IMG/VR virus record: IMGVR_UViG_3300032265_002475
Location: 5-64,004 of that record
DNA length: 64,000 bases
Strand: one strand, 5' to 3'
Origin: a virus
A program made the position numbers and the translations under genes. The notes under the pieces are model-generated. The model was not told where the DNA came from and made no database searches. It saw only the letters and a program-made list of their open reading frames with translations. Shown here one piece after another: positions 4,040 through 44,866 of this stretch (position 1 is its first letter; every line of letters begins with the position of its first letter).

Positions 4040-5371
4040 TTAATATTCTAATTCTAATTTAATTTTTTTACCATATTTTTTAAATAATTTATACTCTAAA
4101 GTAGCGTATGCATCATCTTGAATTTCTGCAAATAAACCATTATCTTTATCATCATTATCATTATATGTATGACCGTAATTAATTTTAAATATTTCTCCCC
4201 ATGCATCACCCATTTCATCAAAATCAACTACATATGTATCTTCTACTAATTCACCTGTTTTTAATAATTTATCTAATATTTTTTGAATAAGATTATATTT
4301 ATTAGATGAGATAGGTTCTTTTTCAGATATAACTCCTGCTAATTTTTGCATACGAGTAAATTGTTCATCTAAACCTGTCAATCCAGTATCATCTTTAGTT
4401 AAATCACTTTGAATAGAATCCATAGCGTCATTAACCCATTTTATTTGACTAGATGTTAATTTGTTTTTAATTAAATTTTCTATAAATGATTTAAATTCAG
4501 GAGTTTCTAATTTATAAATTTCAGTAAATAAGTATTCTTTAATTCTTTGGTCTGTGTATTTACTTTCTACAAATAATTTATTAATAGCATCATATATAAA
4601 TTTACCAAAACGTAAATCATCTGGTTCATTTTCTAATTTATCAACTTTATCTACTATTTGTTGATTTTTTTCTTTATCAGTTCCAAAACCATGTAATGAA
4701 ATTATTTCATATAATCCTTTAATAATTTCATGAACTAAAAAAGCAAAATTTAAACCCCAAGCTTTAATTACTAATTGATCAGTTTCCTCATCATATCCAC
4801 CTTCAGATTCACCACCTTCTAATTTTTGTTGTTGAGCTAACATTGCTAATAACATAGCTATAGCTTGTTCATCATCATAAATTCCAAAAGCAGCATTTAA
4901 TAATTCATTATATTTTTGTAATAAAGAATCATCAATTGCTTCTAAATAATCTCCAAATAAATTAACAGCATATGCTCCACGAATAGAACTACCTTGAGTA
5001 ATACCATTAATAATACGACGTTTTTCGTCTTCAGGCATTTCTACATCAGAAACTGGTTTGAGTTTACAATTTTTACATCCCATTTCTGAAGGTTTTCCTC
5101 CTATCTTAGCAATAATCTTAATATTTTGATCTTGTATGATAGGGTAAGCTTCTTCTACTAATTGTACAGCTAATGACTCTAATTCAGGTATATAATTACT
5201 TTCAATTTCAGAAATTTCTCCAAGTAAATTTCCAGTTTTTAACATTACTTGTATTAATTGTTCACTTCCTAATAATTTTTTTCTACTTTCAGCAGATTTA
5301 GATTTAAGTATATCAACTACTTCAGATGGAAAAAATTTATCATATTGAGCTTCTTGTAATAGTTTACTCAT
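4040..5371 (-). CDS. hypothetical protein (443 aa) with internal EQFTRMQKLAGVISE motif
   Basis: ORF; motif at about residue 330 followed by an acidic ~95-aa tail resembling that of 3275-3994. Confidence 0.6.
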   Translation of the reverse strand: MSKLLQEAQYDKFFPSEVVDILKSKSAESRKKLLGSEQLIQVMLKTGNLLGEISEIESNYIPELESLAVQLVEEAYPIIQDQNIKIIAKIGGKPSEMGCKNCKLKPVSDVEMPEDEKRRIINGITQGSSIRGAYAVNLFGDYLEAIDDSLLQKYNELLNAAFGIYDDEQAIAMLLAMLAQQQKLEGGESEGGYDEETDQLVIKAWGLNFAFLVHEIIKGLYEIISLHGFGTDKEKNQQIVDKVDKLENEPDDLRFGKFIYDAINKLFVESKYTDQRIKEYLFTEIYKLETPEFKSFIENLIKNKLTSSQIKWVNDAMDSIQSDLTKDDTGLTGLDEQFTRMQKLAGVISEKEPISSNKYNLIQKILDKLLKTGELVEDTYVVDFDEMGDAWGEIFKINYGHTYNDNDDKDNGLFAEIQDDAYATLEYKLFKKYGKKIKLELEY

Positions 5372-5652: not shown

Positions 5653-7539
5653 TTAATTAATTATACCTGCTAAATATTTAAATTTATGTTGGTTAGATTT
5701 AAATTCTTGTATATGTTCTTTTAAACCTTGTGATATTTGAGCAGGAGTAAGTTCTATTGTATTATCATAATCATCAACTTTATTAAATGTTAAAGTGTCA
5801 AAATCATTTTCTGTAAAAAACATAGAATTTGAATTTGATGGATAATATCCTGATAAAGAATATTCTTTAACATCTTCACCATTTTTAAGTAAGTCAATAG
5901 TAATAGGATCTATATTTTTGTATAATATTCTTCCAGTTTCATCCATTAAACAGTATGAAGAATCATCATCATATTTTTCATAAGTTATAAAATAATATTT
6001 TCCATTTATAAGTAAAGTAATAGGAATCCCCATTGCTGTAGCTAAGTATTTTTCAGCATTTTTTTTATTTTTACTTATTTGTTTTACAATAGATAAAAAT
6101 TGTTGTTTTTGTTTACTGTCAAATTTATTAAAAGTTTCTGCTGAAATTGGAGATATTACAATTTGTTTTGTTGTTGCTTGTTTAGAAGTTTCATCATTTC
6201 CAAATTCAAATTTACTGTCTGTTGTAAATAATGAGTAAGCTTCATATAACTGTCTTTGTTTACTATCCATGTATCTCGTAGCCTCTTCAGGTAAATATCC
6301 CATTATTTTAATATTATCACTAATATATTGTTTTAATGTATTTTCACCTAAATTATCTTTAATTAAATCATATGTTAATTTATTTTTAAAACTATCATAA
6401 TATTTTAATTTTAAATTTTCAGGTAAAAATTTTAAAAATGGAGTAGGAATAGCTACATCAGGATAACGAGTATATCTATAAATCGGATATCGTTTTAATA
6501 ACGATTGACTATTTTTTAATTCTTCATATGAACATTCTCTATCGTTATTAATTGCTAAATTTTTTAATTCTGTATCTAAAAGTAAGAAAATATCAGTAGG
6601 TATAGTTTTAGCATTATTCTGAACATATAATGTTTTAGTATTATATGATAATGCTTGAAATTGTTCTGGGCTTAAACGTTTTCCTTTTAATGCTTGTAAT
6701 TCTATTTCTTCTGCTTTTGGTTTTACATATGCTATTTTACTTTCTAAAGATTTTAAAGTATTAATTATATCATCAGGTTTATATGATGAATATGTTTTAT
6801 TCATATATGAAAGTAAATTTGAAAAACTAACAGAAGTATTAGGTTCATCATTAGGATCATTATTAGCATTTGTCATTTTATATTTATTATTTTCAAATAC
6901 ATGAATAACAATAGCATGTAATGGATCTTTAAAGCCACCATTTACTTTTTCATCTGAACGATTTCTATCAAATACAAAATAAAACATTCGTGATGCTCCT
7001 TCTCTAAAACGATACGACATGTACATATTTTGAGTATCGGATGCTCTAGATATGCACCAGTTATAATATTCTGGTTTTTCTTTAGCACCATATTTTACAC
7101 AACTATGTTGTTCATCTCCTAAATATACTTCTATACCATTTTGATTATATATTAATTTACCATCAGTATTAACTGAGTTTAATATTTTTGATTGAGCTAG
7201 TTTTTGTTGTTTTTTAGATGAAGGAAAAACATCAATTAGACTTTCAAGATCATTAAATCTATCCCAAAGATAGATATCCATGAATTTATTTTTTTCTTGA
7301 ATATTTCTTGGAATTAAATTTTTAATTTTTTCGTAGTTAGCTAATTTTAATTCATCAGTATCTCCTTCATTTTTTTCAAACATATTTTTGATCTTTGATT
7401 TTAGATCTTCAAATCGTTTTATGTAACTTCTAATAGTGTCTGATTCTAAATTAGGTTGTTGAGATTTATAATGAGCTATTCTATCATTATAAACTTTTTC
7501 ACTATATTCTTTAAGTAATAAATCTGTTAATTTTATCAT
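5653..7539 (-). CDS. MIKL-leader family protein (628 aa); C-terminus ...KFKYLAGIIN
   Basis: N-terminus MIKLTDLLLKEYSEK; C-terminal YLAGII resembles the FTRMQKLAGII motif of the downstream genes. Confidence 0.6.
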   Translation of the reverse strand: MIKLTDLLLKEYSEKVYNDRIAHYKSQQPNLESDTIRSYIKRFEDLKSKIKNMFEKNEGDTDELKLANYEKIKNLIPRNIQEKNKFMDIYLWDRFNDLESLIDVFPSSKKQQKLAQSKILNSVNTDGKLIYNQNGIEVYLGDEQHSCVKYGAKEKPEYYNWCISRASDTQNMYMSYRFREGASRMFYFVFDRNRSDEKVNGGFKDPLHAIVIHVFENNKYKMTNANNDPNDEPNTSVSFSNLLSYMNKTYSSYKPDDIINTLKSLESKIAYVKPKAEEIELQALKGKRLSPEQFQALSYNTKTLYVQNNAKTIPTDIFLLLDTELKNLAINNDRECSYEELKNSQSLLKRYPIYRYTRYPDVAIPTPFLKFLPENLKLKYYDSFKNKLTYDLIKDNLGENTLKQYISDNIKIMGYLPEEATRYMDSKQRQLYEAYSLFTTDSKFEFGNDETSKQATTKQIVISPISAETFNKFDSKQKQQFLSIVKQISKNKKNAEKYLATAMGIPITLLINGKYYFITYEKYDDDSSYCLMDETGRILYKNIDPITIDLLKNGEDVKEYSLSGYYPSNSNSMFFTENDFDTLTFNKVDDYDNTIELTPAQISQGLKEHIQEFKSNQHKFKYLAGIIN

Positions 7540-8207
7540 TTAACTAGTGTATATTTATTATTTATTTTTTTAATTAAATTTTCTATATCACCATATTCTA
7601 CACTTCCTATATTTGCTATTGTAGCATTATTCTTTTTAAATTGATCAAACCCAAATTCATTATTATCTAATGAATTACTTTGATTTAAATAGTTAGCAAA
7701 TTGAACTGCTATTTCCTGTTCTGGGGTTAATTTGTTTACCACATTTTCAATTTTATGTTGTCCTTCAGGTGTTTTTGCTTCAGCAGGTTTAAGTGAACCT
7801 ACTGCTAATAAAGTAGCAGCTACTATTGATCTTAATTTATTATTTTCACTAATAACTACATTTTGATTTACTAAAAAATCTTTAACTTCTTCAATATCAT
7901 CTTTTGCAGTTGCAATATGATCAGAAGCCCAATCATGTCCTTTTGATAATATGTTATCTACTGCTTTTTCATCTAATTGTAACATCTCATCAATTGCATC
8001 TTTAATAGTTTTAAGATTTTGAAAAAACATATAATGAGCACTTTCTTCAGTTAATGATTTTTTAAGATCTTTAACATATTTTTCTTTTTCTTTATTTTGT
8101 TTTTTTGTTAAATGAGTATGTTTAGCTCCTTTAGGAGTTTCAGGTTTACCATATTTAGCTAAATTAGTAGCTAAGGCATACATTAGATTAGTTTTATTTT
8201 TTGACAT
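7536..8207 (-). CDS. hypothetical protein
   Basis: ORF with 4-nt overlap to neighbour. Confidence 0.55.
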   Translation of the reverse strand: MSKNKTNLMYALATNLAKYGKPETPKGAKHTHLTKKQNKEKEKYVKDLKKSLTEESAHYMFFQNLKTIKDAIDEMLQLDEKAVDNILSKGHDWASDHIATAKDDIEEVKDFLVNQNVVISENNKLRSIVAATLLAVGSLKPAEAKTPEGQHKIENVVNKLTPEQEIAVQFANYLNQSNSLDNNEFGFDQFKKNNATIANIGSVEYGDIENLIKKINNKYTLVK

Positions 8208-8209
8208 TT

Positions 8210-9820
8210 TTATTTATTTTTTAATAATACTATATTTCTAGCTATTTCGTCACTAGCTTTATTTCTTTCTTCTTTTGAAGTTTTTAAGTTAGATTTACGC
8301 GCTGAGTTATATCCTCCTCCAAGACTTCCTGTTTTTGCTATATTTAATTTTTTCCAATTCATTTTTTTATCATTTAAATATCCATTTAATATTTCACTTT
8401 CTTTATCAGCAGCTTCATAAGCATTCATAAAGTCAGTTTTTATTATATAATTAATTTGTTCAGAAGTTATTTCAGGATGTTCTTTTAAGAATTTACTAAC
8501 TGCTGTTAATTTATTTTTTTCTTTTTTTAGAATTTCAGGATTTTCTCTAGCTTTAATTGTTTCTTCTTGTTTAATTATTTTTTCTTGATTTTCAATATCT
8601 ACTTTAAAATCATTTAAACTTGATTTATAACTACCTATTTTTATATGTTCTCCATATCGCCTATTAGGATCATTTGTTAAACCTACATAAACTCGATTAT
8701 CTCCATCAACTCCATTTATATTTATAAATTCATAAGCATAAATTAGTTTTTCACTTTGAGGAACGTATTGCATTCCAATATCATTCCAAAAATTTCTTCT
8801 TTGAACATTATTAAAATTTTGTTTTCTCATATATCCTGATATACCGTGATATAACTTTAATGAATAGTCTAATAATTCGTAGATATAATTATTTTTTTCA
8901 AATTCAGGATATACTAATTTAAGTTGTTTTATATGTTCTTTAAAATCTTCTTTAGTATATTTACTCCAATATATTTGAGATTTAAGACCTAGTTTATGCC
9001 AGTTTTGATAATCTTCTCCATCCATTAATGGAAAAATATTTGCTTTAATATAATTGTAAAGAGTATTATCTCCACCTTTTTCTATAGGATCTCTGCTTAA
9101 ATTGGTAGGGTTAGGTTCTTTATCAGGATTTTTTAATTTCCATTTTTTTCTCCAAATTTCAACTGCTTCTTTAGCTTTCTTTATGTCAGTTCCAATAGTT
9201 TTAGAGTATATATTTTCCTCTCTTCCGACAGGAAAACCAAATTTACCCCATTTTAAAAAATCTTCTCCATCCATTAATGGAAAAATATTTGCTTTAATAT
9301 ATTTCCAAAGAGTATTATCTCCACCTTTTTCTTTACTATCACTTTCTAAATTACTAGAAAAAGGTTCTTTTTTATCAGGATTAAATTTTTTCCATTTTTT
9401 TCTCCAAATTTCAACTGCTTCTTTAGCTTTTTCTATGTCAGTTCCAATAGTTTTAGAGTATATATTTTTCTCTCTTACGACAGGAAAACCAAAATCACTC
9501 CACGTTGCTTTTCCGTTATTAATAAAATTTGTTTTAATATATGTCCAAAGAACATTGTTTCCACCTTTTTCTGCAAGATCACTTTTTAAATTACTAGAAG
9601 TAGGTTCTTCTTCTTCATCAGGATTTTTTGATTTCCATTCTGCTCTCCAAGTTTCAATTGCTTCTTTAGCTTTTTCTTCATCAGTCCCGATATAATCATA
9701 TTTTCCTTCATCTAACATACTCTCAATTTCATTAATCTTACGTTCAGCAAGTAATTCAAAATTAGCTGTATTTTTAGAAACAGTAAATAATTCGCGTAGT
9801 AAATTTGTTAACTTAATCAT
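8210..9820 (-). CDS. MIKL-leader protein with three ~85-aa tandem repeats and a C-terminal GIY-YIG-like segment
   Basis: N-terminus MIKLTNLLRELF; three copies of TDxxKAKEAVEIWRKKWK...KGGDNTLWKYIKAN; LIYAYEFININ...NRVYVGLTNDPNRRYGEH resembles GIY...YIG...R...E/H. Confidence 0.55.
   Translation of the reverse strand: MIKLTNLLRELFTVSKNTANFELLAERKINEIESMLDEGKYDYIGTDEEKAKEAIETWRAEWKSKNPDEEEEPTSSNLKSDLAEKGGNNVLWTYIKTNFINNGKATWSDFGFPVVREKNIYSKTIGTDIEKAKEAVEIWRKKWKKFNPDKKEPFSSNLESDSKEKGGDNTLWKYIKANIFPLMDGEDFLKWGKFGFPVGREENIYSKTIGTDIKKAKEAVEIWRKKWKLKNPDKEPNPTNLSRDPIEKGGDNTLYNYIKANIFPLMDGEDYQNWHKLGLKSQIYWSKYTKEDFKEHIKQLKLVYPEFEKNNYIYELLDYSLKLYHGISGYMRKQNFNNVQRRNFWNDIGMQYVPQSEKLIYAYEFININGVDGDNRVYVGLTNDPNRRYGEHIKIGSYKSSLNDFKVDIENQEKIIKQEETIKARENPEILKKEKNKLTAVSKFLKEHPEITSEQINYIIKTDFMNAYEAADKESEILNGYLNDKKMNWKKLNIAKTGSLGGGYNSARKSNLKTSKEERNKASDEIARNIVLLKNK
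9000..9720 (-). repeat. ~255-bp tandem DNA repeats (three copies) inside gene 8210-9820
   Basis: near-identical blocks at about 9128-9300, 9380-9505 and 9610-9700; mirrored by the repeated antisense ORF 9102-9695. Confidence 0.7.
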
Positions 9821-10281
9821 TATAATTTATTGATTTTTAAACGTAAAGTACCATTACCTTTAATAAGACGATGCCAATGGTGCTTTTGTATAAATATTGG
9901 AGTATTTAGTGATGTTGGTAATTCTTCATCGAGTTGTATTTTCCAATCTGTTTTTCCTATAATTTCTACAATGCGGGATTCATTATCCAGATGCCAAAGA
10001 AGTTCAATTGGATCTATATTTTCGTTAAATTCACGAATAATATATTTGTTTGTAACTTCTATGTCTTTATATGGTCTTTTGCTAGTTAAATTTTCAGACG
10101 TAGATGACTTTTTTTCTTTTAATCTAGTAACTTTAACATATGACATTCCATCTTTTGATGCAAATGGAGTACCAAATGTAGTATTATATTCACTTTTAGG
10201 ATATGTACTAGAATACCAACGTATTTTATTTTGTAATTGAAGTGAAGTGTCTGCTTTTAATATAAAAGTTATTGAATCCAT
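9820..10281 (-). CDS. hypothetical protein
   Basis: ORF, 1-nt overlap with upstream gene. Confidence 0.5.
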   Translation of the reverse strand: MDSITFILKADTSLQLQNKIRWYSSTYPKSEYNTTFGTPFASKDGMSYVKVTRLKEKKSSTSENLTSKRPYKDIEVTNKYIIREFNENIDPIELLWHLDNESRIVEIIGKTDWKIQLDEELPTSLNTPIFIQKHHWHRLIKGNGTLRLKINKL

Positions 10282-10297
10282 AGTTTAGATTTTATTA

Positions 10298-11131
10298 TTA
10301 TAAGTTAACTCCTAATCTTTTTACAAATCTTTTATACAAAGTTGGTTTAGTTGACCACATTTTCATCTTCATTAACTCACTCTCATATTCTTGTTCTATC
10401 TTTGGATAATTTTCGGAGGTCCATTCTGCATTAGAAAAAAACCAAGGCATTTGTTCATATTTTTTATCTGCTAATATGTTCTTTATATCTTTAGATTTTA
10501 TATCTGAAAGAAGATTATTTAATAGATTTCTGTAATTAGGATGTTTTTTTATGTTGGTAGTTACTTTGTTAACTAGTGGTGCTGTAAATGCATCAAACTC
10601 CCAAGGTGATTTTATATATTTTTCAAAATTTTTATCAAACTCTGATTTGATAGCTCCTAAATTTGATTTATCTATAGAACGTGCAAATTTATTTCCTAAT
10701 GGTTCTACTCCTTTCTTAGCTATACGTTGATAAACATTATTATTTCTTAATTTAGGATCCATAGCATGAACTAATTCATGTTCTATTGTTTCTTTAAAGT
10801 CTTCATATTCTATAGGATAAGCTAAATTAATTAAAAAAATATCTGCTTGTGTATCCATACGAGCAACACCAGCATCTTTTGGATCATTATAAAATCCTAT
10901 AGTTACTAATAGGTCTTGGTTTTTAAGATCTTTTAATTTAAGATAATTTTTAAATTTAGGATCAATATATGGGTGATTATAATCTAATCCATTTGATTCT
11001 GATTTTAATTTTTCTAAATTTTTAGAAATATAATTATATATCTCTTTAGATTTTGATAAAACTTCCTGAGGAACTTTTACTATATCTTCATTGATATGAA
11101 TTTTTTTTAATATGTCTATAAGTTTAATCAT
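10298..11131 (-). CDS. MIKL-leader protein with HExxH (zinc-metallopeptidase-like) motif
   Basis: start moved to internal ATG at 11129-11131 giving MIKLIDILKK, right after the stop of the upstream gene at 11133; IEHELVHAMDP motif. Confidence 0.5.
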   Translation of the reverse strand: MIKLIDILKKIHINEDIVKVPQEVLSKSKEIYNYISKNLEKLKSESNGLDYNHPYIDPKFKNYLKLKDLKNQDLLVTIGFYNDPKDAGVARMDTQADIFLINLAYPIEYEDFKETIEHELVHAMDPKLRNNNVYQRIAKKGVEPLGNKFARSIDKSNLGAIKSEFDKNFEKYIKSPWEFDAFTAPLVNKVTTNIKKHPNYRNLLNNLLSDIKSKDIKNILADKKYEQMPWFFSNAEWTSENYPKIEQEYESELMKMKMWSTKPTLYKRFVKRLGVNL

Positions 11132-11132
11132 A

Positions 11133-11378
11133 TTATTTATCTTTTTTAGGCATAAACCAGTTTGAACACCATTTTGAAGGATCTTTAATTTGATTGCCTT
11201 CATTGTCTACTAATTCAGCAGTACCCATGTATTTTTGATATTGTTTATTAGAACACATGTGTTTTTCATCTTTCATATAATGAAATTTACAAACATGACA
11301 ACCAAAGCCTATTGGTGAGTACATATAAGGAACATATTGTTCCTCTTTTTTTTCATTTAATAAATCTATTAATTTCAT
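11133..11378 (-). CDS. small Cys/His-rich protein (MKLIDLL leader variant)
   Basis: listed ORF 11133-11507 overlaps the upstream gene by 128 nt; internal Met gives MKLIDLLNEKKEE... starting 2 nt after the upstream stop; CHVCKFH...HMC cluster. Confidence 0.45.
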   Translation of the reverse strand: MKLIDLLNEKKEEQYVPYMYSPIGFGCHVCKFHYMKDEKHMCSNKQYQKYMGTAELVDNEGNQIKDPSKWCSNWFMPKKDK

Positions 11379-11379
11379 A

Positions 11380-11760
11380 TTATTTAGTTTTACCCCATTT
11401 TTTACCTTTACCGGGTGTTTTACATTGTGTTGGTGTAGGACGACATGATGGATATTTAGAGCGTATTTCACCTTTTTTTCTACCACATGCTTTACATTTA
11501 CCATCATGGCATGTATTACAATCTACCCAACCACCTTCTTTACCAGGTGCTCCTTTACGTTTAAACCAAGTACGAAGTGTTTCTTTAGTTTTTTCTTTAA
11601 TTAATTCGTCTTCTTTTAATCCTTTCCAAATATTACCTTTACGGCATCTAACAATAGCACCTGATTTATAAGCAGATGGTTTATCATATTTGCGATCTGC
11701 TATACGCTTACAGCGATCTTCTAATAATATTTGTTTTAATATATTTGTAAGTTTAATCAT
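11380..11760 (-). CDS. MIKL-leader basic Cys-rich protein (possible zinc-binding)
   Basis: MIKLTNILKQIL; CxxC/CxxxC clusters; Lys/Arg/Gly-rich tail. Confidence 0.55.
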   Translation of the reverse strand: MIKLTNILKQILLEDRCKRIADRKYDKPSAYKSGAIVRCRKGNIWKGLKEDELIKEKTKETLRTWFKRKGAPGKEGGWVDCNTCHDGKCKACGRKKGEIRSKYPSCRPTPTQCKTPGKGKKWGKTK

Positions 11761-11778
11761 TTAATACTATTTAATTTA

Positions 11779-12276
11779 TTACCAATAATATGTAATACCA
11801 CTACCAGGTTGAAATTTATTCCATCTAATACGATAATGTTTATGTTTTTTTGGATTATATCTTGTACTTGGTCTTACATCACCAGGTTTATTATTGTAAG
11901 CATCTCTAGTTTTAATTTTATCATATGTATAATATTTTTGAATTTCACATGATTGTAAAAATATTGAACTTGCTATTATTAATGTAATAATATTTAATAT
12001 AGAACCATTAATTTTAAATTTAAATTTATCCCAGAATTCAATTAAGAATTTATTGAATTTACTAATTTCTAATTCTTTAATATTGTTATTAATAGTTTCA
12101 ATTTTTTGTTGTTCTGTCATTGAATTAATTTTCTTTTCTATTTCTTTTAAATCTTCATTATTTAAAGTAGATTTTAATTTATTCCAATATTCTGTTAATT
12201 TATTAATAATTAAATTTTCATTTAATTGTTGATTTTCAAAATAAATATCTTCTATAAGTGTTGTTAATTTAATCAT
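11779..12276 (-). CDS. MIKL-leader protein with one predicted transmembrane segment
   Basis: MIKLTTLIEDIYF; hydrophobic ILNIITLIIASSIFL stretch. Confidence 0.55.
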   Translation of the reverse strand: MIKLTTLIEDIYFENQQLNENLIINKLTEYWNKLKSTLNNEDLKEIEKKINSMTEQQKIETINNNIKELEISKFNKFLIEFWDKFKFKINGSILNIITLIIASSIFLQSCEIQKYYTYDKIKTRDAYNNKPGDVRPSTRYNPKKHKHYRIRWNKFQPGSGITYYW

Positions 12277-12668
12277 TTTTGGTATTGTTTATTATGTTCA
12301 ATATATTTATCTATATCTTCTTGTGTATACCCTAATAATTTTCCTATTTGTCTAGAATCTTCTTCAGTAGCATCCCATGCTAAATATCCACCATATTTTT
12401 CAGCTATATCTTTCAATTTATTAGCTTCTGATTCTGCTCCTTTTCTAAAATAAATGTATGCTTCTGATGGATTACCGTTAACTTTTAATGTTTCTAATTT
12501 ATGTTTACGAATAGTATTCCAAAATATATCTTCAGGTATAGTTGAACTTTTTAAAACCATCCATCCCAAATTTCTTTTACCATCTATAACGGTTTGTAAA
12601 GCACTTTCATCTCTATAAGCTTCATAATCTCTGATTTCTTCTTTTAATAAATCTATAAGTTTAATCAT
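12273..12668 (-). CDS. MIKL-leader hypothetical protein
   Basis: MIKLIDLLKEEIRDYEAY; start/stop coupled. Confidence 0.55.
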   Translation of the reverse strand: MIKLIDLLKEEIRDYEAYRDESALQTVIDGKRNLGWMVLKSSTIPEDIFWNTIRKHKLETLKVNGNPSEAYIYFRKGAESEANKLKDIAEKYGGYLAWDATEEDSRQIGKLLGYTQEDIDKYIEHNKQYQK

Positions 12669-13039
12669 TATATTGTAATTTTTTCTGCTTTAGCGGCTGC
12701 TTTAAACATTCTTACACCTTTAATTTTTTTAATATCTGCTATAAGTTCTTCAACTTGAGGTTGACCAAATCCTCCTTTTCCAATAAATGGATGTGGATCT
12801 ATTTTTACAGTTAAATAAATATAATAATTTTTATTTTGATACATTTTTTCATCAGAAACATATTCTGTTGCTTTTACAATTGTTACTCCAGGTAATGAAC
12901 GAATATCTGATAAAATATCTGCTTGATTTCTTTCAGTTAAATCTGTAATTAAAATGCCTTTTAGTTTATAATTTATACTGCTTTCTTTAATTAAAGCAGT
13001 AATTAATTTTTCTGTTAAGTTATTTATTAAATGTTTCAT
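12668..13039 (-). CDS. hypothetical protein (MKHLINNL leader variant)
   Basis: ORF, coupled. Confidence 0.5.
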   Translation of the reverse strand: MKHLINNLTEKLITALIKESSINYKLKGILITDLTERNQADILSDIRSLPGVTIVKATEYVSDEKMYQNKNYYIYLTVKIDPHPFIGKGGFGQPQVEELIADIKKIKGVRMFKAAAKAEKITI

Positions 13040-13353
13040 TTTACGTTATACTCGGTATTTTCTATTTTTAATTTACTAATAGTATTTAAGTTTACAGCTC
13101 TATATTTTTTCTTTTGAACATCAAATAATATTATCAACCCATAATCACTTGGATTATAAGGCAATTCTCCACCTTTTAAATATGATTTAACTCCTAAACG
13201 AGCATTCATTACTCTTGTAGTACCATCTTTTTTAATAAATGTAACTGTAAAAAATTTACCTTTAGTAGCTTTTATCATTTTTTCAGCGTCTGCTTTTGAA
13301 ATGGTAGTAACTTGTTCTAATAGTATATTTTTAAGTATTGATAGTAATTTCAT
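13036..13353 (-). CDS. hypothetical protein (MKLLSILKNIL leader variant)
   Basis: ORF, coupled. Confidence 0.5.
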   Translation of the reverse strand: MKLLSILKNILLEQVTTISKADAEKMIKATKGKFFTVTFIKKDGTTRVMNARLGVKSYLKGGELPYNPSDYGLIILFDVQKKKYRAVNLNTISKLKIENTEYNVK

Positions 13354-13364
13354 GTTAATAAATA

Positions 13365-14117
13365 TTAAGAACCCATAGATTCATATTTACTTTGTGAAAC
13401 TGTATGGTATTTACCGCAGTCAACACATTGTAATTGTATTCTATATGTTCCTATAGCTGAAATACGTTTCTTTGAAAATTTCATATTATTTAAACCACAT
13501 TCTGGGCAGGAACAATCTTCACCTCCATTTATTACACCATGATGAGTTTTTGCTGGGATATGTGTTGATAATTCATTATATACTCTTTCTAAGATATTAA
13601 CATCTTCTTTACAGTATTTAACCATATGTTCTAATGATTTTTTATCTTTATCAAGTACTATTTTTTTCCATAAATCATAACCAGTATGGATTTTTTTACC
13701 TAAACCTAAAAATTGAGCAATATAATCTAATTTATTACTGTTAAATCTAAATTTAGAACGAGCATATTTTAAAGTATCTATTGTTCCATAATTTGGAAAC
13801 ATTGATATTCTATGGAATAAACATCTTGTTCTAATCCAAGCTAAATCAAATTTATCTCCATTATGTCCTACTAATTCATCAGCTTCATTTGCTATTTTTA
13901 CAAATGATTCTAACATTTTTTTATCATTTTGATTAGCATCCCATGCTAAAAAGTGAGTTGTTTTTTCATCAGCCCACTTATATGCTATGCATATAATTGC
14001 TCTTTCTCTAATAATGCTTTCAGGACTGATTGTTTGTTTATAACCAGCAGACCAAAAAAGCCCTATATTTGGACTAGTTTCAATGTCAAAGAATAATCTT
14101 TTTACTTTTTTACCCAT
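13365..14117 (-). CDS. DEDDy-type 3'-5' exonuclease with C-terminal zinc ribbon
   Basis: Exo I FFDIETSP, Exo II VGHNGDKFD, Exo III YCKED; C-terminal CSCPEC...CVDCGKYH. Confidence 0.55.
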   Translation of the reverse strand: MGKKVKRLFFDIETSPNIGLFWSAGYKQTISPESIIRERAIICIAYKWADEKTTHFLAWDANQNDKKMLESFVKIANEADELVGHNGDKFDLAWIRTRCLFHRISMFPNYGTIDTLKYARSKFRFNSNKLDYIAQFLGLGKKIHTGYDLWKKIVLDKDKKSLEHMVKYCKEDVNILERVYNELSTHIPAKTHHGVINGGEDCSCPECGLNNMKFSKKRISAIGTYRIQLQCVDCGKYHTVSQSKYESMGS

Positions 14118-20086: not shown

Positions 20087-20446
20087 TTATTTTATTACAT
20101 TACATTCTTTAAAAAATTCTATTAAAGAATTAACTCTATTATTTAAATTGCTTTCTCCAGTCCACCACATATCTTCTAATGAACCATAGTGTGATGTATT
20201 TTTAAAAGCATTTTTAACATCTTTTTTTGTAAATCTTTTTTTTGTACCTCTAGTAATAATATCTAAAAGAACTAAAGCATTTGCTGTATCTTCATCATAA
20301 TCATCTACCCAATAATTAAAAGAAACTTCGGATTTTAGTTCTTTTAATGCCCAAGGTTGACATTCATAGACTGGATTAGCAGAAACTGGTTCTAACTCAT
20401 TTAAAATTTGTTCTCTTATTATTTGCTTTAATTGAGATTTTTTCAT
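20087..20446 (-). CDS. MKK-leader family protein (leader plus ~95-aa cargo)
   Basis: MKKSQLKQIIREQILNELEPV. Confidence 0.55.
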   Translation of the reverse strand: MKKSQLKQIIREQILNELEPVSANPVYECQPWALKELKSEVSFNYWVDDYDEDTANALVLLDIITRGTKKRFTKKDVKNAFKNTSHYGSLEDMWWTGESNLNNRVNSLIEFFKECNVIK

Positions 20447-38792: not shown

Positions 38793-39212
38793 CTATTCAT
38801 CATCTGGAAATAACTTATGAGGTATTTTCTTATTAAACTTCATTATTTTTTTAACTTCCTTAGGCTCGTCTATAACATAATATAAAGCTTCTTTACTTTC
38901 TTCCATTGCTTTTGTAGTACGATGATTACCATCTATTAAAAGTAACTCAGATAAATCTGTTTCTGGATTTTTAAAGGCAACAACTATACCAATAGGCTTA
39001 GAATAATCCATTTTAAGATTTTTAATCTTTTCAGGATCTACACTAGTAAATAATGAACTTGTTAAACGTATTTTACTTGGATTTAATTTATAGATTTTAT
39101 ATTTTATACCATCTGATTTAATTAAATCGTATGCTTTATCTACGTCAAAAATATAACGACCATGGTAAGCTTTAAAAATTTCTTCTTTAAGTATATTTAT
39201 TAATTTTATCAT
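38793..39212 (-). CDS. MIKL-leader protein with ParB/Srx-like nuclease domain
   Basis: MIKLINILKEEI; LLIDGNHRTTKA resembles the ParB DGHHR motif. Confidence 0.5.
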   Translation of the reverse strand: MIKLINILKEEIFKAYHGRYIFDVDKAYDLIKSDGIKYKIYKLNPSKIRLTSSLFTSVDPEKIKNLKMDYSKPIGIVVAFKNPETDLSELLLIDGNHRTTKAMEESKEALYYVIDEPKEVKKIMKFNKKIPHKLFPDDE

Positions 39213-40210
39213 TTGATTAATTCAGTTTTATCTTTATCATAATATAATTTTTTTAGCTTAAGACATTTAGAAATGTCTAAACTAATTAATTGATTACGTT
39301 CACAATTTAAACGTTCTAAATTAGGACATTTTGAAATGTCTAAAGTAGTTAATTGGTTATTAGCACAATATAATGTTTCTAAATTAGGACAATTAGAAAC
39401 ATCTAAAGTAGTTAATTGATTAGAATAACAGTATAATTCTTCTAAATTAGGTAAACGACCCAATCTAAGAGTAGTTAATTTATTACCACAACACCATATT
39501 TTTTCTACTCTAGGGTCATTAACTACTAAAGTTTTTAAATTTTTATCACTACAATATAATTTATTATTTTCATCTAACTTAAATTTAATTCTTTCACCAT
39601 CTACCGTAATACCGTAAATTGATTGATTAGTGGAAATAGGTTCCAATTCAGTTAATATAGTTTCTTTAATTAATTGGATTTTATCTTTATCGTAATTTAA
39701 ATATTCTAAATTAGAACAGTTTGAAACGTCTAAACTAGTTAATTGGTTATTAGCACACTTTAATATTTGTAAATTAGGACATTTAGAAATGTCTAAACTA
39801 GTTAATTTATTAGAATAACAGTCTAAATAATATAAATTGGGTAATATACCTAATTTTAGAGTAGTTAACTGATTTCTCCAACAAGATAATTTTACTAAAT
39901 TAGGCAAATTACCTAATTTTAGAGTAGTTAATTGATTATTTTCACAATTTAAAGCTTCTAAATTAGGCAAATTACCTAATTTTAGAGTAGTTAATTGATT
40001 TCCAAAGCAATTTATTTTTGTTACTCGTAAGTCATTAACTACTAGAGTTTTTAAATTTTTAAACTCACATTCTAAATTATTATATTTATTTAATTTAAAT
40101 TTAATCTTTTCACCATCTACCGTAATACCGTAAATTTGACTAGACAAGGCATATTCATACTCAGCTAAAATTTGTTCTCTAATAAGTTGTTTTAGTTCGT
40201 GTTTTTTCAT
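39209..40210 (-). CDS. MKK-leader leucine-rich-repeat protein (two fused leader-LRR cassettes)
   Basis: MKKHELKQLIREQIL; repeats NQLTTLKLGNLPNL.L.C..N; internal second leader IKETILTELEPISTNQSIYGITVDG. Confidence 0.7.
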   Translation of the reverse strand: MKKHELKQLIREQILAEYEYALSSQIYGITVDGEKIKFKLNKYNNLECEFKNLKTLVVNDLRVTKINCFGNQLTTLKLGNLPNLEALNCENNQLTTLKLGNLPNLVKLSCWRNQLTTLKLGILPNLYYLDCYSNKLTSLDISKCPNLQILKCANNQLTSLDVSNCSNLEYLNYDKDKIQLIKETILTELEPISTNQSIYGITVDGERIKFKLDENNKLYCSDKNLKTLVVNDPRVEKIWCCGNKLTTLRLGRLPNLEELYCYSNQLTTLDVSNCPNLETLYCANNQLTTLDISKCPNLERLNCERNQLISLDISKCLKLKKLYYDKDKTELIK

Positions 40211-40605
40211 TTTAAAGTAATTCGTCTATAAATATGAGGAGTGAATTTATCTGCCAATGCCCTGGCTTCCACTTCATAAAGATTGTCTTTATATCCATAT
40301 ATATTAGTTAGTTGATCATAATGCTTGTCTTTAGACAAATGTGTAAACTGCATAAAATGAACATACTCATGTATAGTAAATTTTACTAATTCTTTTTTAG
40401 TGTTAATACGCTTAGGATAAAGCGTTATTTTAGACGCTCTATACGCTAATCTTCGCCAGTCTGCGTAATGGGTATCAATACTGTAATTAATATAAAGCTT
40501 GGGTAAATTTGCGCGATAAAGTGGAAATCCTAAATAATGAGGGCACCAGTTTAAAATTTGCTTGGCTAGCTGTTTAAATTGGTGTTTATTTAAACCACGT
40601 ATCAT
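40207..40605 (-). CDS. SprT-like HExxH zinc-metallopeptidase-like protein
   Basis: TIHEYVHFMQFTH. Confidence 0.45.
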   Translation of the reverse strand: MIRGLNKHQFKQLAKQILNWCPHYLGFPLYRANLPKLYINYSIDTHYADWRRLAYRASKITLYPKRINTKKELVKFTIHEYVHFMQFTHLSKDKHYDQLTNIYGYKDNLYEVEARALADKFTPHIYRRITLK

Positions 40606-41042
40606 TTTATAAAACCTTTCTTTTGTAGTTCTTCTCTGTCTAATTTAAATGCAATATAGCCATTATTTATTCTAAAGTTATGCATTGTAAATTTGCTTTT
40701 ATATATGTTTATTAATATTTGAGCTGCAAAATCAAAATCTGCTTTTTTAACTAAACCACGTAAATCTTGTTTTATAAATTGAGGAATGTCTTTTGGTTTT
40801 AATTTTGCTAAAGTATTATTATATTCATCAGAATGTATTGATGTAAAATCTAATGGAATATCAAAATAAAAATATTTACTATCATAATCTATAGGAAATG
40901 CATCTGCATCTTTACTATTACCATACCACCAACCTTTTCCACTTATGTAATTTATACTCCATGGTCTTTTAGCACCAGAAACTGGTTCTAATTCTGTCAG
41001 AATTTGTTCTTTTATAAGCTGTTTTAATTCGGATTGTTTCAT
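40602..41042 (-). CDS. MKK-leader protein, unknown cargo
   Basis: MKQSELKQLIKEQILTELEPVSG. Confidence 0.55.
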   Translation of the reverse strand: MKQSELKQLIKEQILTELEPVSGAKRPWSINYISGKGWWYGNSKDADAFPIDYDSKYFYFDIPLDFTSIHSDEYNNTLAKLKPKDIPQFIKQDLRGLVKKADFDFAAQILINIYKSKFTMHNFRINNGYIAFKLDREELQKKGFIK

Positions 41043-41626
41043 TAGTAAAATGCTTGATATATTGTTTGACCTCTATAATTTAATTTATTAATTTCAAATC
41101 TATATACTGTACTATCAATTGGATTAACACTTAAATACAATCTGTCATCTTCATTATCATCTAACATTATTTCATCACCTATATTATAATTTGTACCTAT
41201 ATATAATTCTGATTTAGTCCAACCCTTTCTTACATAATTCCAGTTTGGGTCATTTGTATGTGGTCCTATAGCTTGTAAAGATAAATTAATTAAATCTTGT
41301 TTAACTTTAGGATCTCTTTCCATAAGTTTTGCAAGAGCAGCATTATTAGGAATACGCATAGCAGCAACAGGTTCTAATTCAATTAGAGGCTCACCTAGTG
41401 GTAAACGATTAGTTTTATTTATTATGTGAGCAGTTAATTTTTTATAAAACGCAGGATCTGTTTGTTTTTTATCTTTTACAGCAGTGTATAAGTGTTTATT
41501 ATGTTTTAATTTAGTTAAATTTGGATATAAAGTAACAAGATTTAACATTTCATCATTAGTAAATGTTCTTTGAACTTCAGCTAGAATTTGTTCTTTTATA
41601 ATTTGTTTTAATTCGTGTTTTTTCAT
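41042..41626 (-). CDS. MKK-leader protein, unknown cargo
   Basis: MKKHELKQIIKEQILAEVQ. Confidence 0.55.
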   Translation of the reverse strand: MKKHELKQIIKEQILAEVQRTFTNDEMLNLVTLYPNLTKLKHNKHLYTAVKDKKQTDPAFYKKLTAHIINKTNRLPLGEPLIELEPVAAMRIPNNAALAKLMERDPKVKQDLINLSLQAIGPHTNDPNWNYVRKGWTKSELYIGTNYNIGDEIMLDDNEDDRLYLSVNPIDSTVYRFEINKLNYRGQTIYQAFY

Positions 41627-42165
41627 CTGATTAGTTGAGTTTTGTCTTTATCGTAAGTTAAAAGATTTAAATTAGGACATTTAGAAATATCTAAAGTAGT
41701 TAATTGATTATTAGCACAATTTAAAGATAATAATTTAGGACATTTAGAAATGTCTAAAGTAGTTAATTGGTTATTAGCACACTTTAATATTTGTAAATTA
41801 GGACATTTTAAACTAGTTAAACTAGTTAATTGATTACTATCACAATTTAAATATTCTAATTTAGGTAATATACCTAATTTTAGAGTAGTTAACTGATTTC
41901 CAAAGCAATCTATTTTTGTTACTCGTGGATCATTAACTACTAGAGTTTTTAAATTTCCAGCCCGTTCAGGTAATTCATCTTCAGGATCATCTTCATCTTC
42001 ATACCACCACTCATCAAATGAGCAAAGTAATACACCATCTTTATCTAACTCTAATTTAATCTTTTCACCATCTACAGTAATACCGTAAATTTGTTTAGGT
42101 GTAGTAGCTTCTAACTCAGCCAAAATGGTTTCTTTTATAAGTTGTTTTAATTCGTGTTTTTTCAT
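41623..42165 (-). CDS. MKK-leader leucine-rich-repeat protein
   Basis: leader + IYGITVDGEKIKLEL + NQLTTLDISKCPxL repeats + YDKDKTQLIR end. Confidence 0.7.
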   Translation of the reverse strand: MKKHELKQLIKETILAELEATTPKQIYGITVDGEKIKLELDKDGVLLCSFDEWWYEDEDDPEDELPERAGNLKTLVVNDPRVTKIDCFGNQLTTLKLGILPKLEYLNCDSNQLTSLTSLKCPNLQILKCANNQLTTLDISKCPKLLSLNCANNQLTTLDISKCPNLNLLTYDKDKTQLIR

Positions 42166-42776
42166 CTGATTAATTGGGTTTTATCTTTATCATAATCTAA
42201 TTTTTGTAAATTAGGACATTTAGAAACATCTAGAGTAGTTAATTGATTATCATTGCACCATAATTGTTCTAAATTAGGACAATTAGAAACATCTAAATTA
42301 GTTAGATTATTACCATTACAATATAACCAAATTAAATTAGGACATTTAGAGACGTCTAAACTAGTTAAATTATTATCAATACAAGTTAAATAGTTTAAAC
42401 TAGAACATTTAGAGACGTTTAAACTAGTTAAATTATTATAACTACAATATAAATGTTCTAACTTAGGGCACCCAGAAACGTTTAAATTAGTTAAATTGTT
42501 ATTCATACAATTTAAATATCTTAAATTAGGTAAACGACCCAATTTAAGAGTAGTTAATTGCTTATTATCCAACTCAATTGTTTTTACCCTTGGATCATTT
42601 ATTATTAAAGTAATTAAATTGTTATGAGAATACTCTAATATACCACTTTTACTTAATTTTAATTTAACTTTTTTATCATCAACCGTAATACCGTAAATTT
42701 GTTGATTAACAGCAACAGGTTCTAACTCAGCTAGAATTTGCTCTTTGATAAGCTGTTTTAATTCGGATTTTTTCAT
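42162..42776 (-). CDS. MKK-leader leucine-rich-repeat protein
   Basis: leader + NNLTSLNVSKCSSL-type repeats. Confidence 0.7.
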   Translation of the reverse strand: MKKSELKQLIKEQILAELEPVAVNQQIYGITVDDKKVKLKLSKSGILEYSHNNLITLIINDPRVKTIELDNKQLTTLKLGRLPNLRYLNCMNNNLTNLNVSGCPKLEHLYCSYNNLTSLNVSKCSSLNYLTCIDNNLTSLDVSKCPNLIWLYCNGNNLTNLDVSNCPNLEQLWCNDNQLTTLDVSKCPNLQKLDYDKDKTQLIR

Positions 42777-43159
42777 TATTTTATATTATGGAACATTAAA
42801 AATAGAATATCATCATCATGCGTGTAATAATATAATGAATATGCTTTAGGAAAATTACCCCAATCAGTACCTACACCTTCATGAATACTCATAGTATAAA
42901 TTTGATTAGTATTTTCTAATTTAAAAAATAATTTAGCAGCTTCTAATTGTCTTTTATCCCAATTCATTTCATCACCATATTCTTTTTGAGCTTTATACCA
43001 CTCTTCAAAATTACCCCAACCTACTAAACCTGATAATGAGATTTTATCATTAAATATCATGCCAAGCATTTCCTTAGGACTTACTGGAGAATTAGAAGTG
43101 TATTCGTATTCTAATAAAACTTCTTCTTTTATAATTTGTTTTAATTCTGATTTTTTCAT
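42776..43159 (-). CDS. MKK-leader protein, unknown cargo
   Basis: MKKSELKQIIKEEVLLEYEY. Confidence 0.55.
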   Translation of the reverse strand: MKKSELKQIIKEEVLLEYEYTSNSPVSPKEMLGMIFNDKISLSGLVGWGNFEEWYKAQKEYGDEMNWDKRQLEAAKLFFKLENTNQIYTMSIHEGVGTDWGNFPKAYSLYYYTHDDDILFLMFHNIK

Positions 43160-43160
43160 T

Positions 43161-44510
43161 TTATATTATTTCTATTCCTAAATTTTCAAGAGCTTTTTCT
43201 AAATCATTAACATAGGAATTACCTAGTCTTTCTATCTGTTTTACATATGGTCCTTCACCATCCATAGCTTTTAGTATATCGTATCCATTTGCTATATTTA
43301 ATCCATATACTTTAAGAGCTAATTGTAGTAAAAATAACCATTCTTCTGTACCTGTTTCTATTTCACCATCTTCTATAATTTCTGGATATTCTTCTCTAAT
43401 CGCTTGTTCTATTTGGTGAGATTTATCTCTATTAGAAATTGGTTGTAATTCTGTCAAAGGTTTACTAAATTTTTGTTTTTTATAATCTGAAATTATACTT
43501 ATAATTTTATTAATAAGAAGTTCTACATTAATCCCTACAGAATGTTCATCTCCAGGATTTTTAGGATTTTCTCTCCTATCTATATCTAAAAATTCATTAA
43601 AATCATCTCCTGGTACTCCTGGCTTACCTTTTAATTCATTATCAAAAATAGGATCATAAAGGCAATCTACTAAATCATCATCCCAATGATGATCAAATTC
43701 GGTCCAATTATAATTAGGTCTATCTTCCTCAGGATCACCTAATAAATCTGCATTTTCGTCAATTATGTAAAAATACTTTTCATTAGGTATTCTTTTTAAA
43801 AGCATTTTAAAACTATTACGAGGAACTGCTTGTAACTCAGCTAAAATTTGTTCTTTGATGAGTTGGGTTTTATCTTTGTTATAAATAATACTTTTTGGTT
43901 CTAAATTAGGACATTTAGAAACGTCTAAACTAGTTAACTGATTATTAACACAATTTAACCAAACTAATTTAGGACATTTTGAAAGATCTAAACTAGTTAA
44001 TTGATTATTTTTACAATTTAATGTTTTTAAATTAGGGCATTTTGAAATGTCTAAACTAGTTAATTTATTAACTTGACAATCTAAAAGTGTTAAATTAGGA
44101 CATTTTGAAATATTTAAACTCTTTAATTGATTATTAGCACAATTTAACTCTTTTAAATTAGGACATTTAGAAACGTCTAAACTAGTTAACTGATTATCAT
44201 GACACCATAAATATTCTAAATTAGGTAGACTACCTAGTTTAAGAGTAGTTAATTGGTTGTGATAACAATATATTCCTTTTACTTGTGGATTATTTACTAT
44301 TAAAGTTTTTAACTCTCCAACCCATTCAGATAATTTATCTTCATCCTGATATAAATCATATGTGTAATTTAATATACCATCTTCATCTAACTCTAATTTA
44401 ATCTTTTCACCATTTACAGTAATACCGTAAATTTGTTTATTAACAGCAACAGGTTCTAACTCAGCTAAAATTTGTTCTTTTATAAGTTGTTTTAACTCAG
44501 ATTGTTTCAT
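43161..44510 (-). CDS. MKK-leader LRR protein fused in frame to a second leader plus C-terminal domain homologous to 44516-44866 and 48165-48404
   Basis: ...IIYNKDKTQLIKEQILAELQAVPRNSFKMLLKRIPNEKYFYIIDENADL... then YPEIIEDGEIETGTEEW. Confidence 0.65.
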   Translation of the reverse strand: MKQSELKQLIKEQILAELEPVAVNKQIYGITVNGEKIKLELDEDGILNYTYDLYQDEDKLSEWVGELKTLIVNNPQVKGIYCYHNQLTTLKLGSLPNLEYLWCHDNQLTSLDVSKCPNLKELNCANNQLKSLNISKCPNLTLLDCQVNKLTSLDISKCPNLKTLNCKNNQLTSLDLSKCPKLVWLNCVNNQLTSLDVSKCPNLEPKSIIYNKDKTQLIKEQILAELQAVPRNSFKMLLKRIPNEKYFYIIDENADLLGDPEEDRPNYNWTEFDHHWDDDLVDCLYDPIFDNELKGKPGVPGDDFNEFLDIDRRENPKNPGDEHSVGINVELLINKIISIISDYKKQKFSKPLTELQPISNRDKSHQIEQAIREEYPEIIEDGEIETGTEEWLFLLQLALKVYGLNIANGYDILKAMDGEGPYVKQIERLGNSYVNDLEKALENLGIEII

Positions 44511-44515
44511 TTAAT

Positions 44516-44866
44516 TTATTTTTTATAATCTGAAATTATTTGTTTAATTTTATTAACAAGAAGCATTTCATTTTTTCCAGTACCTTTTTTTGTAGGATTT
44601 TCTATTCTATCCATTTCTTGGAACTCTTGATAATCATCTCCTAGTACCCCAGGCTTGCCTTTTAATTCATTGTTAAAAATAGGATCATAAAAGTAATCTA
44701 CTAAATCACTATCATCTAAATCTAAATCTGCATTTTCGTCAATTATGTAAAAATACTTTTCATTAGGTATTCTTTTTAAAAGTGCTTCAAAACTATCATT
44801 AGAAATTGGCTGTAATTCGGCCAAAATAGTTTCTTTTATAAGTTGTTTTAATTCGTGTTTTTTCAT
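44516..44866 (-). CDS. MKK-leader protein (start corrected to internal ATG 44864-44866)
   Basis: listed ORF has a spurious 46-codon 5' extension; MKKHELKQLIKETILAELQPISNDSFEALLKRIPNEKYFYIIDENADL. Confidence 0.55.
   Translation of the reverse strand: MKKHELKQLIKETILAELQPISNDSFEALLKRIPNEKYFYIIDENADLDLDDSDLVDYFYDPIFNNELKGKPGVLGDDYQEFQEMDRIENPTKKGTGKNEMLLVNKIKQIISDYKK

Follow-up and report, generated by a model that had tools for sequence, protein, structure and literature searches.

A short N-terminal leader on unrelated proteins of an uncultured T4-related phage resembles T4 capsid-targeting propeptides

The DNA analysed here, hereafter called the window, is a stretch of 64,000 nucleotides covering positions 5 to 64,004 of the IMG/VR virus record IMGVR_UViG_3300032265_002475. 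It is a piece of a contractile-tailed phage genome with a GC content of 25%, and every credible gene in it lies on the minus strand. Between positions 5653 and 13353 a run of genes was found in which eight products begin with a common peptide of ten residues, with a consensus resembling MIKL(T/I)(N/D)(L/I)L(K/R)E and the canonical form MIKLTNLLKE. A ninth such gene is located 26 kb away, at 38793-39212. This peptide is hereafter called the leader and the remainder of each protein its cargo. The leader genes were identified by a scan for M[IK][KL][LI] at the starts of open reading frames (ORFs) combined with a view of the codons, which gave eight genes in the run, where an earlier note on this DNA had reported at least eight. 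Their coordinates are collected in Table 1 together with those of other features of the window.

Table 1. Leader genes and other features of the window (positions are those of the window; lengths in amino acids, aa).
Feature	Position	Strand	Leader	Remarks
105-aa gene	13036..13353	minus	MKLLSILKNILLE (variant)	WYL_2 (Sm-like SH3) cargo; first leader gene of the run
123-aa gene	12668..13039	minus	MKHLINNLTEKLITALIKE (degenerate)	
131-aa gene	12273..12668	minus	MIKLIDLLKE (canonical)	acidic cargo, no family match
165-aa gene	11779..12276	minus	MIKLTTLIED	cargo with one hydrophobic, membrane-type segment
126-aa gene	11380..11760	minus	MIKLTNILKQILLE	Cys-rich basic DUF5872 cargo
81-aa gene	11133..11378	minus	MKLIDLLNE	restart inside ORF 11133-11507; 4-Cys cargo
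277-aa gene	10298..11131	minus	MIKLIDILKK..INE	restart inside ORF 10298-11203; HELVH motif in cargo
153-aa gene	9820..10281	minus	no canonical leader	within the run
536-aa gene	8210..9820	minus	MIKLTNLLRE	three 84-aa repeats; GIY-YIG-like stretch by motif only
223-aa gene	7536..8207	minus	none	within the run
628-aa gene	5653..7539	minus	MIKLTDLLLKE	cargo without family match
139-aa gene	38793..39212	minus	MIKLINILKE	cargo with DGNHR (ParB/Srx-like at motif level only); final gene of the MKKSELKQ operon
Class-2 operon	39209..44866	minus	MKK(S/H)ELKQLIKEQILAELEPV, LxxLIKE core	eight genes with this start, plus leaderless 40207-40605
Isolated 119-aa gene	20087..20446	minus	MKKSQLKQIIRE (class 2)	adjoins structural genes
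DnaG-type primase	18673-19611	minus		
3'-5' exonuclease	13365-14117	minus		
gp6-like baseplate wedge protein	30185-32038	minus		
Peptidoglycan-binding lysin				assigned by eye from N-terminal sequence

Successive genes of the run are tightly packed, with spacings from -4 (overlap) to +18 nt. This packing includes two genes that had been listed as longer ORFs, 11133-11507 and 10298-11203, and for which internal restarts at a leader Met had been proposed. The restarts were borne out, as the resulting lengths of 81 and 277 aa match public gene calls on identical metagenomic contigs, an 85-aa homolog of the 81-aa protein in the related locus L009 begins at its MIKL Met (MIKLTDLLKE), and use of the upstream ATGs would create overlaps of 128 and 71 nt with the genes before them.

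The leader is constrained as a peptide. The degenerate DNA pattern for M-I-K-L-[TI]-[ND]-x-L occurs six times in the window where 0.13 matches are expected, and none of 100 shuffles reached six. Codons vary between copies (ATT/ATA, AAA/AAG, CTT/TTA/CTA, and Lys AAA versus Arg CGC), and this synonymous variation places the constraint on the peptide and not on the DNA. Conservation extends to residue 10-14, past the Lys/AAA-rich start bias that had been suggested as a possible explanation; nucleotide-level constraint limited to the first few codons, as would mark a start-proximal codon effect or translation enhancer, was not what was found. A DNA repeat, aagtttaatcat, had also been reported before each start. 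This string is actually the reverse complement of ATG ATT AAA CTT, and a regulatory repeat upstream of the starts was rejected, since the string is codons 1-4 of the leader itself read on the opposite strand. Residues L4, L/I7, L8 and E10 are present in five of the nine window copies; in the remaining four an L/I-x-E follows further on, still within 15 residues. With only ten residues, Lys, Asp and Glu interspersed, no hydrophobic core and no AxA or lipobox motif, the leader does not have the features of a Sec, Tat or lipoprotein signal.

The cargos bear no such resemblance to one another. No pairwise similarity was detected among the nine window cargos at E<0.01, so that the set is a genuine leader-tagged group of heterogeneous proteins; a paralog family was rejected on the same ground. 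The mature cargos are basic (isoelectric point, pI, at least 8.4) in seven of the nine proteins. Searches of the window cargos against Pfam, PHROGs and PDB returned nothing beyond DUF5872 and WYL_2: the 126-aa protein, with 8 Cys and a pI of 9.9, matches PF19197 (DUF5872) from residue 13 (E 2e-9), and the 105-aa protein matches PF10902 over residues 24-91 (E 3.4e-8). Among the cargo labels of the earlier note, the HExxH motif (HELVH), the Cys-rich basic protein and the hydrophobic segment were retained, as was the tandem repeat (9009-9677; 252 bp in 2.7 copies with 81% matches), which encodes the repeats of the 536-aa protein at a unit length of 84 aa where 85 had been noted. The GIY-YIG label of the same protein was not retained beyond the motif, a comparison with T4 SegD being not significant. 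Similarly, the protein at 38793 carries the same leader, as claimed, and its ParB-like label is traced to the DGNHR motif, with no significant database match.

The same modular arrangement was seen in related loci, where the 124 leader proteins from IMG/VR among the matches listed fell into 46 cargo sequence clusters. Among the clusters are a Zeta_toxin-type kinase (E 1e-17) and, with weaker matches, alpha/beta-hydrolase, 2H/Acb1-like and NT5C proteins. The Pfam domains of leader proteins begin at residues 12-24. Across 32 DUF5872 orthologs neither L4 nor E14 varies, and indels and differences in length set in exactly past E14, which places the junction between leader and cargo at the Glu. Cargo modules are also shuffled, as is evident from occasional fusions: in locus L039 (622-1383) the N-terminal part of DUF5872 is joined to a homolog of the 131-aa cargo, and in two orthologs (P0065, P0093 and similar) the leader has become internal after fusion with an in-frame upstream ORF (...NISEVKLTDILKQLLLEKKAD-RC...).

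A common core underlies more than one leader class. The core, Phi-x-x-Phi-Phi-x-E (hydrophobic-x-x-hydrophobic-hydrophobic-x-Glu), is found both in the MIKL leaders and in a second class (MKKSELKQLIKE), as LTNLLKE and LKQLIKE, respectively. It falls within the first 15 residues of 20 of the 102 window genes, compared to 2.5 expected from its internal frequency, and in its strict form of 15 genes compared to 0.4 expected; the 81-aa gene, excluded by an overlap filter, would add one. The complete genome of Flavobacterium phage immuto (35% GC), hereafter called immuto, has 18 genes with an N-terminal core against 4.3 expected, including an exact MIKLIDLLTE gene at 24569-24994. A third leader class with the same core, MENFDLKKFLVE, was seen in immuto, in which an MKKSQIVKAVQEVLEE gene lies between the portal and protease genes, the position of the T4 core proteins gp67 and gp68. 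The earlier note had suggested that the MIKL proteins might form a different virion-targeting class. Virion targeting is the best-supported reading of the sequences, but because the core is shared with the MKKSELKQ class, the MIKL class probably belongs to the same pathway rather than to a class of its own.

Several minor observations concern these classes. The class-2 leader is present on nine genes in all, five of which are paralogs (44866, 44510, 42776, 42165 and 40210) with a common cargo module that is Cys-rich in four of the five; genes 42776, 42165 and 40210 share the C-terminal ending YDKDKT(E/Q)LI(K/R). The homolog of the 123-aa protein in locus L066 begins with MKRSRLIQIIKEE, which is of the class-2 type. 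Four immuto proteins (1803-2318, 103806-104354, 117631-118632 and 118632-118931) carry the core within a further N-terminal class, M(E/A)(D)NF(D/N)LKKFLVENKLT, of which window gene 15894 (15526-15894) has a degenerate copy, MIDNFDLKGFLYNN. The annotated immuto 5'-nucleotidase (NT5C, 109856-110455) has a 17-residue N-terminal extension, MKKVMGNLADLLLEE, ahead of YQIYCDMDG, taken by eye as the start of the catalytic domain; with this extension, an enzyme of nucleotide metabolism appears to be leader-tagged.

The distribution of the leader was determined by scanning IMG/VR with the back-translated pattern M-I-K-L-[TI]-[ND]-x-L-K-E. At least 120 stretches with GC contents of 25-36% contain the pattern, which among the matches listed is almost always at an ORF start. 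In the loci of these matches the 9-mer IKL[TIVS][NDE][LI]LKE directly follows a start codon in 130 of 130 cases (128 Met and 2 GTG starts). In bacterial and archaeal genomes totalling 596 Gb the same DNA pattern was matched 11 times. Five of these matches also fit a stricter peptide pattern, and two of the five are genuine-looking leader-cargo ORFs, both on short contigs of 2.9 and 8.3 kb that had been assigned to metagenome-assembled genomes (MAGs). The leader is thus restricted to phages and essentially absent from cellular genomes, and a host-type sorting signal was rejected for this reason. The two cellular ORFs, L129 on the 2.9-kb contig (Methanobacterium MAG) and L131 on the 8.3-kb contig (Chitinophagaceae MAG), have cargos matching IMG/VR phage families, and both are likely phage contigs that were mis-binned. 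No occurrence of the leader peptide strings was found in a literature search. The leader family, its spread over the clade and its scale (about 20% of window genes) appear to be undescribed; the kind of system to which it would belong, the capsid targeting sequence (CTS), is already known.

The carriers of the leader, judged by their gene content, are T4-related myoviruses akin to immuto. Homologs of non-leader genes are shared with the window or with immuto by 94 of the 120 loci among the matches listed, and identities of 40-75% to genes of leader-carrying IMG/VR loci are common among window genes; on these grounds the phage of the window is placed in an immuto-like, T4-related clade, which probably infects Flavobacteria-like bacteria of aquatic habitats. 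Among cultured phages, Microcystis phage Mel-JY01 and immuto are closest. Most window proteins have no Pfam or PHROG match, no tRNA genes were found within the 64 kb, a tblastn search with two leader proteins against 50,697 cultured-phage records returned no match, and a DNA search with the 5653-13353 region gave two short weak matches only.

The head module of this clade could be followed in relatives. In locus L005 the order of genes is that of T4, and they encode Terminase_6N, a gp20-type Portal_T4 (E 3.6e-69) and, as prohead protease, a gp21-type Peptidase_S77 (E 3.1e-28). A gp21 homolog was found in 18 of 120 loci, each covering only about 7 kb on either side of the MIKL match, with 29-36% identity to T4 gp21 in full-length matches (among the matches listed). 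Immuto also encodes a gp21-type protease. The window's own head module lies outside the window, and in a search for further contigs of its genome the only contig found ends 0.85 kb past the window. The gp21 homologs of the clade begin with MK(S/N)LLIE-T, like T4 gp21 itself (MNEPQLLIE-T), and the scaffold homologs begin with MA(S/N)SKLLKE-A; these N-termini suggest that a cleavage specificity for (L/I)-x-E has been retained.

Upstream sequences may bear on the expression of the leader genes. The structural genes 35302, 32789, 30154 and 23021 have a promoter-like (C/A)ATATTTATA 12-28 nt ahead of their ATG, and the lysis-region gene 38738 has one 45 nt upstream. The motif is also found 12-28 nt before the leader-type genes 44866, 40210, 5625 and 3994, with ATATTTATA 26 nt upstream of the first ATG of the class-2 operon (44866), and before genes 17872 and 15894. 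Over the whole window ATATTTATA has 20 matches against 11.5 expected; no exact copy lies directly upstream of 13353, the head of the MIKL run. The motif with (C/A) is absent from the early-like region of small ORFs at 45-64 kb, where another sequence, GTCATTAAAT, recurs at distances of 17-53 nt ahead of small ORFs between 45 and 53 kb. The two motifs may represent late and early promoter classes, and the distribution of ATATTTATA would fit co-expression of the leader and virion genes.

Short N-terminal peptides of this form are known from T4, in which the 10-20-residue propeptides of gp24 and the internal proteins (IPs) act as CTS, with residues 4 and 7 driving capsid targeting and residues 8 and 10 driving processing (PMC9026906, PMC5694885). 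The T4 N-termini, as read from NC_000866, are MKTYQEFIAE/A for IPII and IPIII, MKTFKEF...ITE/A for IPI, MAKINELLRE/S for gp24, MLKEQLIAE/A for gp22 and MNEPQLLIE/T for gp21, with the slash marking the gp21 cleavage site, which is established for most of these proteins and presumed in the case of LIE-9 in gp21 itself. In T4 a peptide of about ten residues is likewise carried by unrelated, mostly basic proteins, namely IPI, IPII, IPIII and Alt, that are processed by gp21 (PMC9026906, PMC3012670). The hydrophobic residues at 4, 7 and 8 and the Glu at 10 correspond (MKTYQEFIAE and MIKLTNLLKE), the genes occupy variable, cassette-like loci in both, and both lineages have a gp21-type Peptidase_S77 and a gp20-type portal. 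The best direct match is the gp24 propeptide, which has the same length and the same L-L-(K/R)-E ending as the leader and is identical at six of ten positions to MIKLTNLLRE of gene 8210-9820, whereas other window N-termini mostly share one to three positions with it. The correspondence has limits. Similarity to the CTS of the T4 IPs is at the level of the pattern only, with at most four of ten identities; gp24, a paralog of the major capsid protein, belongs to the shell, whereas the window leader proteins are unrelated to capsid proteins, and the major capsid protein of the clade does not begin with MIKL. The repertoire is also far larger than that of T4, with at least 46 cargo clusters in relatives in addition to the share of window genes given above, and three leader classes (MIKL..., MKKSELKQLIKE... 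and the MENFDLKKFLVE of immuto) are built on the one core.

Two other systems are instructive. In the giant phages phiKZ, 201phi2-1 and SPN3US a diverged gp21 homolog similarly processes many head-internal proteins after Glu, and the ejection or inner-body proteins form paralog families with conserved N-termini, some with a transmembrane segment, as in the SPN3US ejection protein gp47 (PMC5694885). Their propeptides, however, are mostly longer than 100 residues and are cut at (S/A/G)-x-E, while the leader has 10-14 residues and L/I-x-E as in T4. The Dar (defence against restriction) proteins of phage P1 are likewise described as anti-host proteins that are loaded in the capsid and delivered with the DNA (PMC9024508, PMC12810830). 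No homology of Dar proteins to the leader proteins was seen. Head loading in P1 rests on a hierarchy of proteins (Hdf/DarA) and is not known to involve a short shared cleavable leader.

Based upon these comparisons, it appears reasonably probable that the leader acts as a capsid-targeting propeptide of the T4 type, which marks proteins for delivery with the virion and is cut off behind its Glu by the prohead protease. Virion targeting is the best-supported reading because of the resemblance to the T4 CTS and to gp24, the gp21-type protease of the clade, the strict N-terminal position and the absence from cellular genomes. For the leader proteins we infer scaffold binding, packaging, cleavage and delivery to the host. 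In such a mechanism the leader would form a short N-terminal amphipathic helix, hydrophobic at positions 4, 7 and 8, that docks the attached protein on the scaffolding core during prohead assembly. The gp21-type prohead serine protease (Peptidase_S77) would then cut after the Glu of (L/I)-x-E, removing the leader after Glu10, or at the next L-x-E where E10 is missing. What is left, a mature and mostly basic cargo, would remain in the head and enter the host with the DNA. If the mechanism is as proposed, the region 5653-13353 would be a cassette array of internal or ejected proteins like the IP loci of T4, but much larger.

Several points weigh against this interpretation. Glu10 is replaced in four of the nine window copies (by K, Q, N or D), so that a later L-x-E site is needed, the residue after the putative cut is unconstrained, and identity to the T4 propeptides is confined to ten residues. 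The protease was seen in relatives only, the window containing no head module. About 20% of window genes have the core, far more than the few CTS proteins of T4. Certain cargos resemble cytoplasmic enzymes (kinase, nucleotidase) or have a membrane segment, though SPN3US gp47 also has a transmembrane domain. A structure of the DUF5872 protein predicted with AlphaFold2 from the 32-sequence alignment was uninformative (predicted local distance difference test score, pLDDT, of 44); a helix is predicted at residues 4-13 of this low-confidence model. No proteomic studies of the clade (Immutovirus or Mel-JY01) were found in the literature.

The cytoplasmic appearance of some cargos, particularly the Zeta_toxin-type kinase and the NT5C-like enzyme, would be expected if the leader were instead a generic N-terminal amphipathic docking helix, uncleaved and unrelated to the capsid, recruiting many phage proteins to a common partner in the infected cell such as a hub protein of phage or host, a chaperonin, the membrane or a replication or metabolic complex. 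The heptad-like hydrophobic spacing and the helix predicted at residues 4-13 agree with such a role, as do the high share of tagged genes and the presence of GroES/GroEL genes in immuto. A docking helix nevertheless leaves unexplained the near-invariant closing Glu, the indel junction directly after it, the strict N-terminal position, and the likeness to the T4 gp24 and IP propeptides as well as to the first residues of the protease and scaffold of the clade itself, and we consider it unlikely. Less likely again, and by our judgement very improbable, is an effect on expression, in which the start-proximal coding sequence or the nascent peptide would boost initiation or early elongation in an AT-rich host poor in Shine-Dalgarno sequences. 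Regions upstream of the genes are indeed A/T-rich without an obvious Shine-Dalgarno sequence, Lys/Ile-rich codons 2-4 are common among window genes, and the genes are tightly coupled. Against this stand the conservation to residue 10-14 with its hydrophobic periodicity and terminal Glu, the variation of synonymous Leu and Lys/Arg codons at the same positions, which implies constraint on amino acids, and the distribution of the leader, which is lacking from most genes of the same genome and essentially absent from cellular genomes, including those of candidate host groups. The least probable account, a by-product of gene-cassette turnover in which recombination joints or remnants of one ancestral gene left a peptide without present function, would suit the array-like arrangement with its content variable between relatives, the fusions and shuffled combinations (L039, and orthologs with an internal leader) and the partial paralogy of the class-2 operon, but joints need not be exactly N-terminal and Glu-closed, the 30-nt leader DNA is no more alike than the peptide requires, with synonymous sites varying, and the peptide pattern persists over at least 46 cargo clusters as well as in cultured immuto at 35% GC, a persistence that points to purifying selection on the peptide.

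A broader form of the capsid-targeting interpretation can be put forward tentatively, and we rate it as doubtful. In it, about one fifth of the genes in a large, worldwide clade of uncultured T4-like phages from aquatic habitats would encode a capsid-delivered arsenal, addressed by at least three interchangeable leader classes on one core. Its enzyme families would number in the dozens, among them zeta-toxin-type kinases, 2H/Acb1-like phosphoesterases, nucleases and metalloproteases. The leader class might set the copy number of a protein or its position in the head. Were this the case, it would be the most elaborate programmable-cargo system known in a T4-sized phage. Should capsid targeting as such be correct, N-termini alone would predict which hypothetical proteins of abundant uncultured phages are injected, and new effectors of anti-defence and host takeover could be found directly in this way; the CTS principle of T4 would be ancient and massively scalable, and a 10-residue packaging tag would be at hand for engineering Flavobacterium-type phages. 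The same leaders are present in the cultured relative immuto.

Three further features were observed in the window and its relatives. A 145-aa MIKL-tagged protein is encoded between the large terminase and portal genes in L005 (2123-2560) and at least 20 other IMG/VR loci. It has an acidic N-terminal half and a basic C-terminal half (...KKFKVYVKNPKTGK...ARYWSCRKW), and a homolog of its C-terminal domain forms the C-terminus of a 281-aa protein in the window (14161-15006), which begins with the also leader-like MNKNIQNIIKE. The C-terminal 86 aa of the 153-aa protein (9820-10281) form a small domain (PYTDIEVTDKYIIREFNENIDPIELLWHRDDE...HEWHRVIKGTGTLKLKI) that is present in 23 related loci; it is free-standing elsewhere (L004, L012, L023 and others, and immuto 101829-102086), and the window copy has a 67-aa N-terminal extension. 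A third conserved peptide, F(T/I/R)RMQ(K/E)LAG(I/V/L)I, is, unlike the leaders, not bound to one position. N-terminal copies (MNQFTRMQELAGL, MKKQPLNESFIRMQKLAGII), an internal copy (DEQFTRMQKLAGVI) and C-terminal copies (...NESFIRMQKIAGIIK, ...KFKYLAGIIN, each followed by the stop codon) were found. The window sites are the starts of genes 2600 and 3214, the interior of 4040-5371 and the C-terminus of the 628-aa leader protein (5653-7539), whose ...KFKYLAGIIN ending resembles the RMQKLAGII motif. Outside the window the peptide occurs at the C-terminus of L066 3758-4186 and in immuto 111675-112139.

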